Below the pieces are notes generated by a model. That model saw nothing but the letters and a program-made list of their open reading frames with translations, was not told the origin of the DNA and did no database searches. Of a DNA stretch of 64,000 nucleotides, positions 2,250-58,884 are shown piece after piece; the stretch's first letter is position 1; each line of letters starts with the position of its first letter. The DNA lies in assembly GCA_012965045.1 (NCBI GenBank), contig DTSZ01000001.1:591629-655628 (forward strand), read 5' to 3'. The DNA is from Candidatus Saccharimonadota bacterium. GTDB lineage: Bacteria; Patescibacteriota; Saccharimonadia; Saccharimonadales; DTSZ01. Made by a program: the position numbers and the translations under genes.

Positions 2250-2307
2250 CCGGGGGTGAGAGCCTGCCTGCCGCAGGTAGGGACTTGGTCGGGGTGAGAG
2301 GACTTGG
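2250..2307 (-). repeat. Two extra copies of the tRNA-Pro 3' end. Copy 2286-2306 is an exact 21-nt match. Copy 2250-2286 is degenerate and split by a 19-nt GC-rich palindrome at 2263-2281.
   Basis: Direct comparison with tRNA-Pro 2475-2495 (tggtcggggtgagaggacttg). Confidence 0.85.
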
Positions 2308-2442
2308 TCACGTTCCGCGACCCCGAAACTTCACGTTTAAAAACTAGTTTTTAACGGAAGGTTTCCTTGCGAAATGACATTTAGTCATTTCTCACCTCCG
2401 ACTCACTCCGTGAGTTAGGAGTCACAAGTCTTCTCAAGCATT
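2308..2442 (-). ncRNA. Copy A of a tRNA-linked structured repeat family of unknown function.
   Basis: Shares CCCGAAACT, GTTTCCTTGC and TTYTCACCYCCGAC blocks at identical spacing with copy C (28277-28412). Three hairpins covary between the copies. Helix 2306-2322 has an A-C mismatch on the plus strand that becomes G-U on the minus strand. Confidence 0.55.
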
Positions 2443-2608: not shown

Positions 2609-3430
2609 CTAGTTTTTTGATCTTTCAATGAGACTTGTTAAACCGCCCATTACAGCTTGCTGCTCTAAGTCTTCGTCTGGTTTTTCGTAGTAGCTTTCTG
2701 CTACTGCCAAACATTGATCAAGTAGGTTTATGAGTTTGTTAAACATATTCTCATCAATGGACTCAATTGGGTAGCGCCTATCAGAACTCAATGCTTCCTG
2801 TGTTTGATCTCCTACAAATTGAAGGCCAATTCCCTCTTCCCAGATTGGAAATAAGCTATATTTACCCGATTTAAGATCCCCTTTGAATATATCTTTAGCC
2901 GTCGGTATTTCAACGAAATCTACATCAAATTCTTCCTCAAGATCCACCGTGCCCTCATTAATAGTGTATCGCTCTAAGCATGCTGTCCAGCCGTCAAATC
3001 TAGAGATTTTTTGTGAACCCTTTTCTTTAGTTTGCTGAAAAAGAGTTATGAAAATCTCCTCATCTGAGTCCGACCAAATAACAACGTCTAGATGAAATTC
3101 TTCATGTCGTAAGGTGTCTGGGTTTGGCACAGGGCTATTAAACTTTTCTATAATGTGCACTACACGAGCGCTTTCAAAATCGAGAGAATCAGAGGCCCAT
3201 AGGGCGGCCTCGCTCGCCACACCAACATCATCGCTTAAAAGGTGAGCAAAATCGTCAAAAAGTGCGCCAATTCGGGCCTTTCTCGCCATCGGCTGAGTGT
3301 CCTCTTCAAATTGCTCCTTGGCATAGCCCTCAGCTAATAGTGCGTTTACCCAGTCGTCTGCAGTACTTTCACTCATTAGGTAGAGTAAATCATCATTTTG
3401 TTCAAATTCTGACCAAGACCGAGGCTGCAT
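2609..3430 (-). CDS. Hypothetical acidic protein (273 aa).
   Basis: Long ORF with a GGGAG RBS just upstream of the ATG. No recognisable motif. Confidence 0.6.
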   Translation of the reverse strand: MQPRSWSEFEQNDDLLYLMSESTADDWVNALLAEGYAKEQFEEDTQPMARKARIGALFDDFAHLLSDDVGVASEAALWASDSLDFESARVVHIIEKFNSPVPNPDTLRHEEFHLDVVIWSDSDEEIFITLFQQTKEKGSQKISRFDGWTACLERYTINEGTVDLEEEFDVDFVEIPTAKDIFKGDLKSGKYSLFPIWEEGIGLQFVGDQTQEALSSDRRYPIESIDENMFNKLINLLDQCLAVAESYYEKPDEDLEQQAVMGGLTSLIERSKN

Positions 3431-3464
3431 TCATCTCCCATGCCCACCGCTTTTACTTTAACTT

Positions 3465-6363: not shown

Positions 6364-8065
6364 ATAAACCATAGAATAACGTGCCAACACCTGCGGCTGC
6401 AACTACTGATAGATTCGCACTCTCAATTGGTATAGCAGCTGGTTGCGCTAGCGGGTTGCTGGAACTAACAGTCAGCCCAGATTCAGAAGACTGATTATTG
6501 GCAGCCTGCTCTTGGGCAATTTTGTCTTGCTTAGTCTGCAATACATTTTTGGCCGCTGGCGTAGGCTTTGCCGTCCACTGCCATTTACTACCTATAAAAG
6601 CCCACGCTAAGCCATCCTCGGCTTTTGAATATTCACCAGCCGTGCTCTTGCTGTCGCCATTTGGATCGAGCAACTGTGCCTGACCGCCGCTATTGCCAAG
6701 GCTCATTTTGCTGTCAGCAGAAAAAATAGCTACGTACTGGCCAGGTTGCAAAATAATGTCATCAAGCGTTTGTGTTGTGGCCAAAGATTTACCGGTTTTT
6801 AACTTGTAGTCTTTAACGTTTACAGCAAATGTATTTGGGTTATACAGTTCTACAAATTCATCGTTTTTGTCTAGCAGCGGACTGGCAGGGTTTGGCAGCA
6901 GCTCGGTAATTACCACTTTGGCATAGCTGCGTTTTTTCGGTGTTTGCGAAGAAGATGATGCACTGGCGACGCTGGCTGTGTCTTCATGTGGCGATAAGTT
7001 CTGCTGGCCAGGTGTTACCCGGTTCGTAAAAACATAGGTAGTGCCAATTTTCGACCAACTTTCACCAATGGGAGCTTTTTCGTACGCAACCAACTCTGAA
7101 ACTATTGAACCGTCGGGTGCCAGCACTTGAGCTTTGCCACCAGAGTTAGCGAGCACCAAACCACTGTCGCGTGATTCAAACGCAATATAGCTTTTAGCCG
7201 GCAAAACTATGTCGGTAATTTCAAATCTGTACTGTAATTTCGACCCTGTTTGAATTACATAGCCATCTAAATCAATTTCAAGAGCGCTAGGATTATACAA
7301 TTCCACAAATTCATCGTCGGCATCTGTTTGCGGGCTTTTGGGATCGATAAATAATTCTGAAATTTCTACACTCAAATAGTCTTGATCGTTGCCTGTTCCC
7401 TCGTCGGGCAATGGCTGTTCTTCTGGGTCTGGTTCTTCGACTGGCTCAGCCTCTTCTACACTGGGAGTACGAGTAGGCGTCGGGTCGTCCGACACTTCAA
7501 AATCAAGGGAGTTGTCATTAGTGTCTATAAACAGCCCGTCTTCATCAACGATTCGCTTTAAACTTTGGCCAGCTGCTGGCTCGGTTGCTGGCACAGTCTC
7601 TGGGCTGTCAGCTGCAACACCGTAGCCAAGTACATCATGAACCTTTTCTTCTTCGCTCAGTTCCCCGGTGTCGGTGTCTTCAACTTCAACAAGCTGAATA
7701 AGTCGTATGTGTCCGGCGCTCGCTGCCAGGCCACTATTAAATTCAAAATCAAATTCTTCTGGCTCAAGATTTAGTTCTTCGGTCGCCAATAACACAAATC
7801 CTCGGGGCTGTGCTTCAAATTCATCAAATGTCAATTTGGTCTGCCATTGTTCGCCAGTAGCAGACTTATACTGGACCTTCCAGTCGGTTAGGTCTATTGG
7901 ATAGTCGTTAGGATTATAAAGTTCTATAAATTCTGCTTTAGAGTCATCGGTGCTGGCGGAGAAAATTTCAGTTATGAGTAGATTTTTTTGTTCATCTACG
8001 GCACTCAAAGGCACACCCACCAGCAAAACGCACAATATGGTTACTACCCTCCACGTAATACGCAC
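6287..8065 (-). CDS. Surface protein with three lamin-tail-domain (LTD) repeats, an N-terminal signal/TM segment and a C-terminal TM anchor.
   Basis: Three repeats carry EF(I/V)ELYNP...(I/V)DL.(D/G)(W/Y). Acidic P/E linkers separate them. The C-terminus is LSVVAAAGVGTLFYGLYEFRR. Confidence 0.8.
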   Translation of the reverse strand: MRITWRVVTILCVLLVGVPLSAVDEQKNLLITEIFSASTDDSKAEFIELYNPNDYPIDLTDWKVQYKSATGEQWQTKLTFDEFEAQPRGFVLLATEELNLEPEEFDFEFNSGLAASAGHIRLIQLVEVEDTDTGELSEEEKVHDVLGYGVAADSPETVPATEPAAGQSLKRIVDEDGLFIDTNDNSLDFEVSDDPTPTRTPSVEEAEPVEEPDPEEQPLPDEGTGNDQDYLSVEISELFIDPKSPQTDADDEFVELYNPSALEIDLDGYVIQTGSKLQYRFEITDIVLPAKSYIAFESRDSGLVLANSGGKAQVLAPDGSIVSELVAYEKAPIGESWSKIGTTYVFTNRVTPGQQNLSPHEDTASVASASSSSQTPKKRSYAKVVITELLPNPASPLLDKNDEFVELYNPNTFAVNVKDYKLKTGKSLATTQTLDDIILQPGQYVAIFSADSKMSLGNSGGQAQLLDPNGDSKSTAGEYSKAEDGLAWAFIGSKWQWTAKPTPAAKNVLQTKQDKIAQEQAANNQSSESGLTVSSSNPLAQPAAIPIESANLSVVAAAGVGTLFYGLYEFRRDISSTFHRARNYVSGRRKDS

Positions 8066-8140
8066 TAAATCTATATAATCACGACGCTGTTAACTTCCAA
8101 AGCATGAGCAAAATATTTTGTTGTTCGCTACACTGTTAGT

Positions 8141-8668
8141 ATGCTGATTTTAAATACACAACTTTTGCCACGGAGCATTATTAGTATTCATGCAAGTTCG
8201 CCCGTAGCATTTGCCAAACACGTCGTTATTAATCCCCATAACTTAACAATATCGGGCTTTTTTGTGGACTACGCCCGCCTTGCTGGGCAACACCCGGTTT
8301 TAATTAGCCAAGATATTCGACAAATTACTCCAAAGTCGTTTGTGATTAACCATGAAGAAGACATAACGCCCGTGGAAGAACTTATACGGTTTTCAAAGGT
8401 GGCAGAACTTAACTACGAACTACTGGGTAAAGAAGTCCGAACAGAGTCAAAAAAGAAAGTCGGCAGCGTAGACGAGTACGTTATTCAAGCTGATGGCATG
8501 GTCATTTACAACCTGCACGTTAACAAGCCTGTCTGGAAAAGCCTCACTGGTGGTGCTCGTATTATTAACCGTAGTCAAATAGTCGAAGTAACTGACAGCA
8601 CTATTATTGTTAAAGACGCTGTCATAACTGAAAAACAAGTTGCGCCACAAGCTATTCCTGCGAGCTAG
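8141..8668 (+). CDS. Hypothetical protein, possibly a tandem PRC-barrel protein.
   Basis: 175-aa ORF. Only weak pattern resemblance to PRC-barrel/YlmC-type proteins. Its 3' end overlaps the recX stop by 17 nt in convergent orientation. Confidence 0.5.
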   Translation: MLILNTQLLPRSIISIHASSPVAFAKHVVINPHNLTISGFFVDYARLAGQHPVLISQDIRQITPKSFVINHEEDITPVEELIRFSKVAELNYELLGKEVRTESKKKVGSVDEYVIQADGMVIYNLHVNKPVWKSLTGGARIINRSQIVEVTDSTIIVKDAVITEKQVAPQAIPAS

Positions 8669-21290: not shown

Positions 21291-21856
21291 GCTAGCTCCT
21301 TCAAAGCCGCTCGTATTCGGGCCTCGGTACCTTCAGCGTCAACATTAGCTAGGGCTTGCAAGGCCTGCTGAGAACTATAGCCAAGTGCGATCAACGCTTG
21401 CAGCGCTTCGTCGTTTCCTTGCGAGTTCCCCATTGTAGCTTTTTCGTACAAGACATCTTGGCCTAATTTATCGCGCAACTCTACAACAACACGCTCGGCG
21501 GTTTTTTTGCCAACTCCGCTGGCGCCAGAAATGTAGGCATTATTACCGCTCGCAATAGCTTGCTTGATTGAGGCAACAGGACCTAAGTCAAGGATAGCTA
21601 ACCCTGCTTTTGGGCCAATTCCGTTAATACTAATTAAATCTTCGAACAAATTAAGGGCATCGGTGCTGCTAAACCCATATAAATCATGCGCTTTTTCTTG
21701 TATATGCTCGTAAATAAACACCTCAAGTGATTGGGCAAGTTTAATGTGATCAAGGTCTTCTCGGCTGACATGCACGCCGTAACCAACCCCATTAACATTA
21801 ATGGTAACTTTTGATTTTCCAACAAAAACAACAGAGCCTGAAAGATACGAAATCAT
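21287..21856 (-). CDS. ruvA: Holliday junction DNA-binding protein RuvA.
   Basis: MISYLSG start, HhH motifs ([24 protein letters not shown]). Start set at ATG 21856. Confidence 0.9.
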
Positions 21857-27426: not shown

Positions 27427-27608
27427 AGGGGTGTGGTGGGACTCGCCAAAAGTATTTTTCTGGTGAAAAATCTTTTCGATCGTACTCTAGCGCCGGCGCA
27501 CTCCGGTCTTGCGAGAAGCAGACATGCATTTCTCACCCAACTGGGTTCGAGTCATTAAAACTGTCCAATTTAAAACCCGCCAAAAGGCGGGCGTTAAATT
27601 GGAGGGAC
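27427..27608 (-). repeat. Copy B (degenerate, orphan) of the tRNA-linked structured repeat, including its terminator hairpin and a tggaggga tRNA-Lys end fragment.
   Basis: Shares gtgggactcgcc, TCTTGCGA..hairpin..TTTCTCACCC, TAAAACTGTCCAATTTAAAACCCGCC...GGCGGG and AAATTGGAGGG with copy C. No tRNA is adjacent. Confidence 0.6.
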
Positions 27609-27644
27609 GTATGTATCGTTATTGCAACTAAAATAAATCTGCAA

Positions 27645-28151
27645 CTACTCAACGTTAAAAGTTAGAATGTTCGATTCGAAACCTTGCCATTGGAGTTTTG
27701 CTTGATGTTCGCCCGGTGGCAATTTTAATTCGTCACTAAATCCGATGTAATCACTGCTTATATCGTGAGAAAAGTCATCTACCAGCGTAAAAGGGTATTC
27801 ATACGTGATGGTTTTGTTTGAGCCGATATTTATATCTGTAAGCGCATCACCACAGGCATAGTACAGACCAATTGGTTGTTCATTTATATAAAACGTACCC
27901 TCGGTACATGTGGAAGAAAACGTATATGTTTTTGCACTTGTTGTTGGGTTGTTAATGAATGACTTGAAGGTAATTGATTCACCTATTGAATAGATGCTTT
28001 TGTGTAATCCTAGTTGTATATTCAACTCCCCATTCGTAGGTTCAGATACATTCTCATGTTTGACAAGCTTAGTCATTACTAAAAATAAACCAACTCCAGC
28101 TACTATTGCAATCAATAAAGCAATGATAGTAATTTTAACTTTTTTACTCAT
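27645..28151 (-). CDS. Small N-terminally anchored secreted protein (168 aa) lying between repeat copies B and C.
   Basis: N-terminal TM (ITIIALLIAIVAGVGLFLVM). The beta-rich body has weak resemblance to BsuPI-type inhibitor folds, at low certainty. Confidence 0.6.
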   Translation of the reverse strand: MSKKVKITIIALLIAIVAGVGLFLVMTKLVKHENVSEPTNGELNIQLGLHKSIYSIGESITFKSFINNPTTSAKTYTFSSTCTEGTFYINEQPIGLYYACGDALTDINIGSNKTITYEYPFTLVDDFSHDISSDYIGFSDELKLPPGEHQAKLQWQGFESNILTFNVE

Positions 28152-28222
28152 GACTTAACTATAACAAAAATGCTACAACATTAGTTGCGGCATTCTCATT
28201 TGAGTTATGATTTTGACCATAT

Positions 28223-28252
28223 AAAAACACCTACGGCGAGATAGGTGTTTTT
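28223..28252. terminator. Bidirectional terminator hairpin.
   Basis: aaaaacaccta-cggcgaga-taggtgttttt. Confidence 0.65.
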
Positions 28253-28255
28253 ATA

Positions 28256-28441
28256 TGGAGGGTCCAGTGGGACTCGCCCACATTCTGCGGGCCCGAAACT
28301 ACGTCTTTCAAAACAAGTTTTGAAGAGTAAGTTTCCTTGCAAACTGCTCCCAGCAGTTTTCACCCCCGACACTACGTGTCGTGGCTTCGACCCAGTAAAA
28401 CTCTCCAATTTAAAAACCCGCCATTCGGCGGATTCATAAAT
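28256..28441 (-). ncRNA. Copy C of the tRNA-linked structured repeat. It starts behind the tRNA-Lys terminator and ends in an exact 21-nt copy of the tRNA-Lys 3' end (28256-28276).
   Basis: See copy A. Helix 28276-28292 again has an A-C mismatch on plus that becomes G-U on minus. Terminator hairpin ccgcc-attc-ggcgg at 28418-28431. Confidence 0.55.
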
Positions 28442-28518
28442 TGGAGGGTCCAGTGGGACTCGAACCCACGACACCCTGCTTAAAAGGCAGGTGCTCTAAC
28501 CAGCTGAGCTATGGACCC
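28442..28518 (-). tRNA. tRNA-Lys (anticodon TTT), CCA encoded.
   Basis: Hand fold: acceptor GGGTCCA/TGGACCC, anticodon loop CTTTTAA, T-arm GTGGG-TTCGAGT-CCCAC, 77 nt. Confidence 0.95.
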
Positions 28519-58807: not shown

Positions 58808-58884
58808 TGGTAGCGGCAGGTGGAATTGAACCACCGACCTCAGGCTTATGAGTCCTGCGCTCTAACCATCTGAGCTATGCCGCC
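58808..58884 (-). tRNA. tRNA with a CAT anticodon, either elongator Met or lysidine-modified Ile2. CCA encoded.
   Basis: Hand fold: acceptor GGCGGCA/TGCCGCT, anticodon loop CTCATAA, T-arm GGTGG-TTCAATT-CCACC. It lacks the initiator features (no C1-A72 mismatch, no GGG/CCC anticodon stem). Confidence 0.9.

Follow-up and report, generated by a model that had tools for sequence, protein, structure and literature searches.

The question raised by this locus is why an intact transfer RNA (tRNA) gene should be followed, at a short distance, by an exact copy of its own 3' end, and why the same arrangement should recur behind an unrelated tRNA gene. The stretch of DNA analysed here (64,000 nucleotides (nt) from a Candidatus Saccharimonadota bacterium, positions 591,629 to 655,628 of contig DTSZ01000001.1; hereafter, the window) carries tRNA-Lys(UUU) and, behind it, a compact element built around a module that we call S. 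An earlier note on this DNA had reported an exact repeat of the 21 nt of the tRNA-Lys 3' end, 165 nt away, and this was borne out: TGGAGGGTCCAGTGGGACTCG, the reverse complement of tRNA-Lys positions 56-76 with the CCA included, was present exactly twice (28256-28276 and 28442-28462; also recovered by a direct-repeat search), with 186 nt from start to start and 165 nt between the copies. No further match was found in the 64-kb window when up to three mismatches were allowed, and 0.00 were expected from shuffled sequences. The features of the locus are the following (the copy of the element behind tRNA-Lys is copy B).

28442-28518, minus strand: tRNA-Lys(UUU), intact, with the CCA encoded (ARAGORN; Rfam tRNA, 73.9 bits)
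28400-28449, unstranded: terminator 1, an inverted repeat (28400-28422/28427-28449, 23 nt, 83% complementary)
28376-28407, minus strand: 5' arm TGGAGAGTTTTACTGGGTCGAAGCCACGACAC, a degenerate inverted (antisense) copy of tRNA-Lys positions 76 to 43
28373-28375: 3-nt loop between the inverted and the direct tRNA copies
28363-28372, minus strand: direct copy of tRNA-Lys positions ~44-53 (GTGTCGGGGG; the tRNA itself has GTGTCGTGGG), of which the terminal GG precedes module S
28277-28362, minus strand: module S of copy B, 86 nt (match to covariance model R1, 100.3 bits, E=2.8e-23)
28338-28362, minus strand: helix P1 of copy B
28295-28335, minus strand: helix P2 of copy B
28276-28292, minus strand: helix P3 of copy B
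28256-28276, minus strand: 3' tail CGAGTCCCACTGGACCCTCCA, an exact copy of tRNA-Lys positions 56-76 (the 21-mer)
28217-28258, unstranded: terminator 2, an inverted repeat (28217-28233/28242-28258, 17-nt arms, 100% complementary) that takes in the CCA/TGG of the tail

Read along the minus strand, the order is tRNA-Lys, terminator 1, the inverted copy of positions 76 to 43, the direct copy of positions ~44-53, S, the direct copy of positions 56-76, and terminator 2. Module S stands where T54-T55 of the T-loop would be, and the first C of the tail also closes P3. The part of the 5' arm at 28376-28390 forms an inverted repeat (15 nt, 93%) with the T-arm of the tRNA itself (28460-28474), and in the minimum free energy fold of copy B, as in that of copy A described below, the 5' arm pairs with the 3' tail (z = -2.8 for B and -3.9 for A). 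The segment 28256-28407 is a folded-back partial copy of the adjoining tRNA-Lys and not an independent cassette of 186 base pairs (bp); tRNA-Lys is the source of the sequences copied into the element, and the 21-mer is the portion of the tRNA copy that lies 3' of the S insertion point. A conventional scar of an attachment (att) site does not describe this locus. The hairpins that had been said to bracket the unit are both real inverted repeats; a consensus terminator scan flagged neither terminator 1 nor terminator 2 (it flagged only the paralogous hairpin of copy C, see below), and the tRNA-proximal one is probably resident. Terminator 1 has a GC stem (28417-28432) with A/T-rich flanks, and its palindrome reaches the tRNA 3' end on one side and TGGAG on the other. 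Three palindromes that lie behind tRNA-like 3' ends (28217-28258, 28400-28449 and 27564-27603) have arms that include the CCA/TGG plus further tRNA bases, and such long terminator palindromes could drive fold-back duplication.

The second instance in the window lies behind tRNA-Pro(UGG) (2475-2551) and is called copy A.

2286-2436, minus strand: copy A, behind tRNA-Pro(UGG) (covariance-model match, 100.6 bits)
2425-2436, minus strand: antisense arm of copy A
2395-2406, minus strand: sense tRNA copy of copy A
2368-2394, minus strand: P1 of copy A
2325-2365, minus strand: P2 of copy A
2306-2322, minus strand: P3 of copy A
2286-2306, minus strand: tail of copy A

Copies A and B align across the whole core, which confirms that the same element stands behind tRNA-Lys and tRNA-Pro. 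Concerning the likeness of geometry at tRNA-Pro, the 21-nt copy (tRNA-Pro positions 56-76), the spacing (189 nt) and the alignment of the two units held, and the position that had been given was 1 nt off (it is 2286-2306). The equal length of 21 nt had also been taken as a property of a 186-bp unit; this did not stand. It follows instead from the fixed insertion point, with S replacing T54/T55, and unrelated tRNAs display the same 21/22-nt geometry because the repeat is no more than what remains of the tRNA copy on the 3' side of that point. The direct copy of positions 43-53, the inverted copy of positions 76 to 43, the T-loop context, the third copy in the window (copy C) and the family to which all of them belong were absent from the earlier note. 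Directly after the tail of copy A, at 2246-2285, stands a short hairpin, CCTGCGGCAGG, followed by a degenerate and older remnant of the tRNA-Pro 3' end, CTCTCACCCCCGGCTCA; as read from the sequence, this suggests successive events at tRNA-Pro.

The module itself was characterised with an alignment of 95 copies, in which P1, P2 and P3 are arranged around invariant junction nucleotides (U-GA..GCA, AG and GG). RNAalifold gave 34 pairs, 23 of them with compensatory changes, and pairing was kept in 97.6% of cells, against 80.5% after shuffling and 24-44% with the partners slid (491 compensatory cells). Many compensatory differences separate the modules of copies A, B and C, all within one genome. 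The helix at 28276-28292, which had been noticed for its G-U on the minus strand, is P3; one pair of P3 (alignment columns 86-95) is G.U in 86 of the 95 homologues and G-C in 8, and another pair of S is G.U in 30 of the 95 sequences. These G.U pairs would be A-C on the opposite strand, and therefore the tRNA-sense strand (minus in the window) is the folding strand, in agreement with the earlier assignment of the functional strand. S is thus a covarying RNA of three hairpins and a four-way junction on the tRNA-sense strand, with a module length of ~88 nt in the family as a whole (86 nt in copy B).

The family was collected by scanning genome contigs with a pattern derived from copies A and B, which gave at least 120 loci, almost all from Candidatus Saccharibacteria, ~105 of them with true homologues; covariance model R1 gave 140 matches in 100 loci (loci are designated L002, L011 and so on below). 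The covariance-model search that had been proposed as a check came out positive: more than 100 loci of Saccharibacteria have the conserved core, nearly always in linkage with tRNAs. S adjoins tRNAs for Lys, Leu, Pro, His, Met, Gln, Ser, Arg, Val, Glu, Ile, Ala, Gly, Thr and Trp, and diverged modules adjoin tRNA-Tyr and tRNA-Asp; at least 16 tRNA families have S next to them, which upholds the remark that a single conventional integrase would not be expected here. No match to S was obtained by BLAST against phages and plasmids, pattern scans of IMG/VR gave chance matches only, nhmmer over 120 viral loci gave nothing credible, and no description of the element was found in the literature search. 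S is a family specific to Saccharibacteria and undescribed so far. The same architecture, with strongly diverged or decayed inserts missed by the S model, was also seen at L114 (tRNA-Asp), L112 (tRNA-Tyr), L111/L046 (tRNA-Ser), L091 (tRNA-His) and L041; these inserts retain only traces, e.g. GC(A/G)AGGAAC or a P1-like hairpin.

Two layouts were distinguished. In the downstream type (A, B and ~55 others), the tRNA is followed by the terminator, the antisense arm, the sense copy of positions 43-53, S, and tRNA positions 55/56-76; the tail after the module comprises positions 56-76 (21 nt) or, in other copies, 55-76 (22 nt). About half of these copies have an exact 20-22-nt tail, and the rest are perfect up to a breakpoint (positions 66-73) and unrelated beyond it. 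Among 52 copies downstream of a tRNA, the antisense arm over positions 43-61 was found in 35-46 and the sense copy of positions 43-53 in 36-47. In the upstream type (~24 copies), a copy of the 5' part of the tRNA, often with a TATAAT promoter, enters S at position 53; beyond S come positions 55-61 and the complement of these positions, ahead of the promoter and the intact tRNA. Downstream and upstream units alike have an uninterrupted antisense strand that is predicted to pair with the sense sequence on either side of S, giving a duplex that mimics the T-arm region and from which S would bulge, on the sense strand, between positions 54 and 55. The median energy of the duplex of arm and tail was -8.7 kcal/mol for cognate and -6.5 kcal/mol for non-cognate combinations (p=0.0016).

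The ends of S are fixed across sites (at the 5' junction, RG followed by UGAR; at the 3' junction, the end of P3 and then C or U), and the sites themselves vary. The large majority lie in the T-loop, with the point between positions 54 and 55 by far the commonest; S was also found in the D-loop (L078, L106, L110 and L117), in the anticodon loop (L117, L033 and L009), at position 26 (L007, L019, L021 and L115), in the loops of terminator-like hairpins without any tRNA (L093, L097 and L114), in an antisense tRNA-Met fragment (L066), and nested before P3 of another S (L047, L101, L106 and L108). Two loci (L110 and L117) have pseudo-tRNAs with three insertions, and several S subfamilies coexist within one genome. 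Units have been amplified in tandem at L078 and L031 (period, ~182-186 nt), and young units duplicate tRNA positions 56-76 together with the terminator (L011, 65-nt repeat). In all cases S resides in redundant tRNA fragments, at no site within a functional tRNA, and an intact tRNA is always alongside. When S was removed in silico, ARAGORN called a tRNA in only 3 of 103 cases, all of them lenient and lacking a genuine 3' strand of the acceptor. The reading of S as an intron in a working tRNA gene was rejected, as the removal restores no credible tRNA and an intact one is alongside. A miniature inverted-repeat transposable element (MITE) was rejected too: the ends of S (UGAGAA... and ...GUGAC) are not complementary, and the flanking repeats are 21-65 nt of tRNA. 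The repeat search in copy B gave no inverted repeat at the ends of S. The crossover of a serine integrase at TT, or at a restriction-type site TTCGAA, was likewise abandoned; the dinucleotide is not kept, and many T-loops read TTCAAGT. Inserts of other kinds were encountered in passing, namely an unrelated two-hairpin insert in the D-loop of a tRNA-Lys fragment (L047, ~3330-3445, minus view) and, in the upstream pseudo-tRNA-Gln of L006, L081 and L110, a hairpin ACCCC...GCGGGGACCCCA in the anticodon loop, common to the three genomes.

Relatives were compared at the tRNA-Lys locus. The near-identical strains L122 and L123 have the same arrangement as the window. In L124, the closest relative found (its ATP-grasp neighbour is 70% identical), the sequence of tRNA-Lys is the same and is followed only by a terminator and then by a convergent Mur-ligase gene, and covariance model R1 gave no match at this tRNA-Lys locus; the comparison of relatives for presence and absence that had been suggested thus supplied an identical tRNA-Lys without the element. 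Both terminator 1 and the copy C terminator match the L124 terminator in the stem (CCGCC/GGCGG), and therefore the proximal terminator is probably resident and not part of an inserted 186-bp cassette, with the added DNA lying beyond it. In L125-127, an island with a large serine recombinase abuts tRNA-Lys; the recombinase (572 amino acids (aa); 10863-12587 in L125, also in L126 and L127) abuts the tRNA 3' end. Upstream of tRNA-Lys in L125 (10770-10860), CCGAAACTTTTCAAACTTGTTTGAAAATGG, when reverse-complemented, is similar to the P2 region of S, and this stretch may be a decayed S copy on the opposite strand. A decayed island (a C-terminal recombinase fragment and a LexA-like repressor) was found in L013 (3011-5700) between two elements, directly after an element tail, and its junction (AGTTCCC.TCACC) is the one seen at tRNA-Lys in L125-127; element tails are evidently able to serve as secondary landing sites for islands.

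Conservation was assessed at orthologous loci. In the trio L011/L016/L002, the identity is 100% for the tRNA, 100% for the tail, 88-92% for S, 58-79% for the arm and 60-81% for the terminator, and the substitutions within S keep the structure. The order Lys(CUU)-element-folD is common to species of which the FolD proteins are 46-68% identical, and S is 60-84% identical there. The element flanks follow the T-stem changes of the adjacent tRNA (L013 and L030). The conservation of the junction, together with slower change in S and tail than in arm and terminator, would imply, on comparison of the sequences, that a folded RNA is in use.

Protein-coding capacity and transcription signals were surveyed around the element. 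No open reading frame (ORF) of at least 90 aa crosses the region of the tRNA-Lys element, and the ORFs that had been called there are spurious, as suspected. Public pipelines do place short ORFs over the tRNA plus element (8044-8293 and 8821-9016 in L122), and an apparently conserved antisense ORF cluster of ~98 aa over the tRNA plus element at 15 loci is an artefact of the conserved RNA. Pfam searches with ~58 larger ORFs of the window gave no recombinase, transposase, reverse transcriptase or TnpB family; the proteins recognised were of the kind of RecA, RecX, RuvABC, type IV pilus proteins, chaperones, FtsH and ComEC. Clustering of 924 neighbouring ORFs gave housekeeping families only, with no linked protein family enriched, the top cluster being the antisense ORF artefact just mentioned. 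A promoter for an independent transcript was discarded: none was found between terminator 1 and S, which fits read-through, and the sole match, inside S, looks spurious. A read-through transcript could be processed at the duplicated CCA end.

Three copies of S were found by the covariance model in the 64-kb window (A, B and C). Copy C is a paralogue of the B unit with a variant module.

27436-27610, minus strand: copy C (covariance-model match 27482-27537, E=0.026)
27600-27610, minus strand: tRNA-Lys 3'-end remnant of copy C
27568-27595, minus strand: terminator of copy C
27542-27567, minus strand: antisense arm of copy C
27510-27535, minus strand: P1 of copy C
27446-27509, minus strand: differing 3' domain of copy C
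27436-27445, minus strand: tail of copy C (tRNA-Lys positions 56-65, 10 nt)

Direct repeats connect copy C with the B unit (82-100% identical over 12-37 nt, in the arm and the terminator, at a spacing of ~840 nt), and the antisense arm of copy C holds a 12-nt exact complement of the tRNA T-arm. Between copies B and C, in a cassette-like position, lies ORF168 (27645-28151, minus strand), which encodes a small membrane-anchored protein without a Pfam match; the same position holds the Mur-ligase gene in L124, and L057 repeats the layout with ORF205 between two copies. Elsewhere in the window, tRNA-Met(CAU) (58808-58884) is without an S element, with a gene start 36 nt downstream, and therefore not every tRNA carries S. 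A third occurrence of TCGCAAGGAAAC, at 21413 inside ruvA, was put down to chance.

The explanation that we favour, to which we give about an even chance, treats S as a protein-less insertion module that depends on structure and survives only where a tRNA fragment is redundant. S would have entered the loops of tRNA-derived hairpins over evolutionary time, foremost the T-loop between positions 54 and 55, and the insertions would persist only in redundant fragments because an insertion in a single functional tRNA gene would be lethal. The fragments would probably arise by fold-back, driven by palindromes or hairpins, and by tandem duplication at the tRNA terminator and the T-arm. The continuous antisense arm would pair with both flanks of S, forming a duplex that imitates tRNA positions ~43-61 and leaves S as a bulge of the sense strand, and the unit would probably be transcribed by read-through from the tRNA promoter and end at terminator 2; the folded RNA could serve the module's own propagation or a tRNA-related host function. 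That S is in itself an autonomous agent at the RNA level, either a small ribozyme or the RNA part of an undiscovered RNA-guided insertion/recombination system that needs host factors only, appears improbable to us; such an agent would recognise the T-loop of tRNA-derived hairpins, where GG meets UU, via its sense arm and its antisense arm, and would insert or exchange itself at that point with no protein encoded by the element.

Several points weigh against the insertion module that we favour. S has no linked transposase, recombinase or reverse transcriptase that could carry out the insertion, and a route driven purely by the host, or catalysed by RNA, is speculative. No promoter-like site was found between terminator 1 and S in copy B. 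Folding of the tRNA-sense strand as single-stranded DNA would fit the covariation too. Conservation of S and tail in situ, together with the tracking of the tRNA by the flanks, would not be expected for decaying selfish DNA; it fits a host function, gene conversion or concerted evolution, and repeated re-insertion alike. The way in which the loci were gathered is a further point, as an exact pattern was used, and the search itself thus accounts for part of the conservation seen in GCAAGGAAAC and AGTTTCGGG; likewise, the figure of 61% of tRNAs with S within 140 nt refers to loci picked for containing S.

A rival explanation is a host-beneficial family of small-RNA genes that is linked to tRNAs and was spread by local duplication rather than transposition, possibly acting as a decoy, sensor or chaperone for T-loop/3'-end enzymes or toxins, or as a splint of the cognate tRNA; we regard this as rather unlikely. 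Every unit would then be a gene kept by the host, with an RNA that displays the exact sequence of the tRNA T-arm and 3' end, along with the complement of that sequence, on the conserved scaffold. S and tail change far more slowly than arm and terminator at orthologous loci (tail 100%, against 58-79% for the arm), the flanks covary with the T-stem of the neighbouring tRNA, and the elements are spread throughout the class in very streamlined genomes, with synteny kept at ~50% FolD identity. Upstream units with their own TATAAT promoters (L021, L031 and L089), downstream units that end in terminators, and the composite pseudo-tRNA-Gln units with three insertions common to L006, L081 and L110 would also suit such a family. 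An identical module at many positions and orientations, even inside another copy, is however the behaviour of an insertion and not of a diverging gene family. Truncation or decay has affected many copies, and in upstream units the 5' tRNA parts are degrading (L050 and L107). No partner protein is known, and the element is dispensable behind the identical tRNA-Lys of L124, where it is absent. The simplest reading, namely a chance repeat, a decaying tRNA pseudogene or an att remnant without any specific element, could appeal to the degenerate older tRNA 3'-end remnants that adjoin the elements (2246-2262 and 27600-27610); with a chance expectation of 0.00 for the repeat and a strongly covarying, sequence-conserved core that recurs in more than 100 genomes, the scar reading is already refuted, and we give it practically no credence.

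The layout of an intact tRNA, inserted DNA and a displaced fragment from T-loop to CCA is the classic one of tRNA-targeting integrative elements, and an att-site architecture served by a recombinase in trans would make the tail attR, the tRNA plus terminator attL, and the 165-bp unit a cargo-less mini-element or deletion remnant; on this view S and its tRNA arms would form a recombination site that works in the folded state, in the manner of attP of the CTX phage or attC of integrons, or else a bridge-like RNA by which the tRNA target is specified. A conserved scaffold with variable arms that match both target strands is a hallmark of programmable RNA-guided systems, and the elements bracket small accessory islets (ORF168 between B and C, ORF205 in L057, and in L013 a prophage-like remnant, i.e. 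a truncated serine-recombinase end plus a LexA-like repressor). In the same direction, a serine-recombinase island abuts tRNA-Lys in L125-127, the same junction follows the L013 tail, and the proximal terminator differs between L011 and L016, the distal one being common to both. We nevertheless hold this quite doubtful. No recombinase was found in or near more than 100 loci or among the scanned window ORFs, one scaffold serves at least 16 different tRNA targets, and S was not found in the viral, phage and plasmid collections searched; the 86-bp S splits the would-be core between the 5' side of the T-stem and the T-loop, there is no common crossover dinucleotide (one or both T residues are missing), and the terminator next to the tRNA at copy B has its orthologue in the resident terminator of the empty site, the opposite of what T-loop integration predicts. 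The serine-recombinase islands can be accounted for by ordinary elements to which the tRNA-like tail offers a secondary site. A guide RNA of a TnpB/Cas12-type effector, with S as the scaffold, the 21-22-nt tail as the guide and GGT(T) of the T-loop as the adjacent motif, aimed at the tRNA gene or at attP sites of mobile genetic elements that carry tRNA 3' ends, seems very unlikely. The scaffold is indeed followed by ~21 nt identical to the sequence after GGTT in the tRNA gene, and the tail is 100% conserved where the neighbouring sequence diverges; against this, there is no effector gene in cis or among the scanned window ORFs and no similarity to omegaRNA, HEARO or other guide scaffolds of Rfam, the upstream units have no 3' guide (only 7 nt plus their own complement), pairing with the 5' arm is predicted to occupy most of the tail, and a perfect match to an essential neighbouring gene would mean self-targeting.

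The insertion module was also set against known systems. Searches of Rfam 15 at gathering and at permissive (E<=10) thresholds, with the window, the locus and five complex loci, gave tRNA matches only. Hammerhead, hairpin, hatchet and twister-sister ribozymes, as well as the K-turn, the T-box, fragments of signal recognition particle RNA, RNase P RNA and transfer-messenger RNA, and a tRNA-like cloverleaf, were dropped by eye for want of a matching core, Rfam being silent on all of them. Williams, in 2002, is said to have described genomic islands and prophages integrated into tRNA genes, with T-loop-type sites among them. The S loci resemble tRNA islands in the intact tRNA, the foreign DNA, the displaced repeat from T-loop to CCA and the arrays of fragments at one tRNA; they differ in the ~165-nt insert without an integrase, the one core at no fewer than 16 tRNA families, the position of that core inside the would-be recombination core, the inverted tRNA copy, and the mirror-image upstream units that carry the tRNA 5' part. 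The omegaRNAs of IS200/IS605 elements (TnpB/IscB) and the non-autonomous palindrome-associated transposable elements (PATEs) derived from them share with S a structured, strand-specific scaffold, which in the downstream units of S abuts ~20 nt derived from the flank, as well as the lack of terminal inverted repeats and of a short target duplication, and insertion beside a short motif. Unlike them, S has no TnpA, TnpB or IscB among the scanned window and neighbouring ORFs and no Rfam similarity, its flank is duplicated from the adjacent intact gene, its tail pairs with the antisense arm, and its P3 end varies by covariation and is not a fixed cleavage site.

Small palindromic or structured repeats that invade RNA and protein genes include Rickettsia palindromic elements and Correia/ERIC-type MITEs. 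They are, like S, short, non-coding, multi-copy and lineage-specific, with stable hairpins, and are tolerated inside other genes or RNAs; S differs in having no terminal inverted repeats, in the multi-helix junction with invariant unpaired nucleotides, and in its almost exclusive association with tRNA-derived hairpins. CTX-phage attP(+) and integron attC are folded single-strand recombination sites. In these and in IS110 bridge RNA, as in S, sense and antisense target-like copies fold into a duplex mimic of the chromosomal target, and variable matching arms are borne by a conserved scaffold; no link of S to XerCD, IntI or an IS110-type protein was seen, the motifs are unrelated, and the large structure of S is a one-strand bulge at the would-be crossover, not a hairpin tip. 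Integron attC, which is defined by R''/L''-L'/R' boxes with a GTTRRRY core and a linked IntI, was rejected on the junction as well (GG followed by U..., with one or both T residues missing, and no integrase present), and a retron non-coding RNA was rejected in the lack of a reverse transcriptase among the scanned window ORFs or the loci, although a closing helix of arm and tail is present. Multiple non-canonical tRNA introns are known from archaea of the Thermoproteales, where 'intron transposition' has been proposed to account for them, and S has in common with tRNA introns that related short structured inserts occur in D-, anticodon and T-loops, up to three together (L110 and L117). The 86 nt of S are too small for a group I or group II core. 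Its hosts, unlike those of tRNA introns, are incomplete tRNA fragments beside an intact, intron-less gene, and no intron model of Rfam, group I included, gave a match. For Patescibacteria, group I introns have been described in tRNA genes at anticodon position 35/36, with T-loops unmentioned (PMC13011429). We rate S as outside the known kinds, since for each of the compared systems at least one defining feature was looked for in S and not found.

For the annotation of Saccharibacteria, the immediate consequence is that S units yield spurious ORF calls and confuse the recognition of tRNA islands (att sites). The conserved junction of S might reflect catalysis or a specific protein partner, and the design of a scaffold plus matching arms follows the logic of programmable RNA-guided systems, so that a new mechanism of mobility or targeting could emerge from it; if S did act on its own at the RNA level, the ultra-small bacteria of the Candidate Phyla Radiation would have in it either a mobile RNA element of a new, protein-less class or an RNA of the bridge kind that can be programmed. 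If confirmed, the family would reveal an undescribed remodelling of tRNA genes, in which folded-back partial copies host a conserved module exactly at T54/T55, and, with three copies in this 64-kb window and several in some metagenome-assembled genomes of Saccharibacteria, it would constitute an abundant new class of structured RNA in Candidate Phyla Radiation genomes that are otherwise stripped to essentials.

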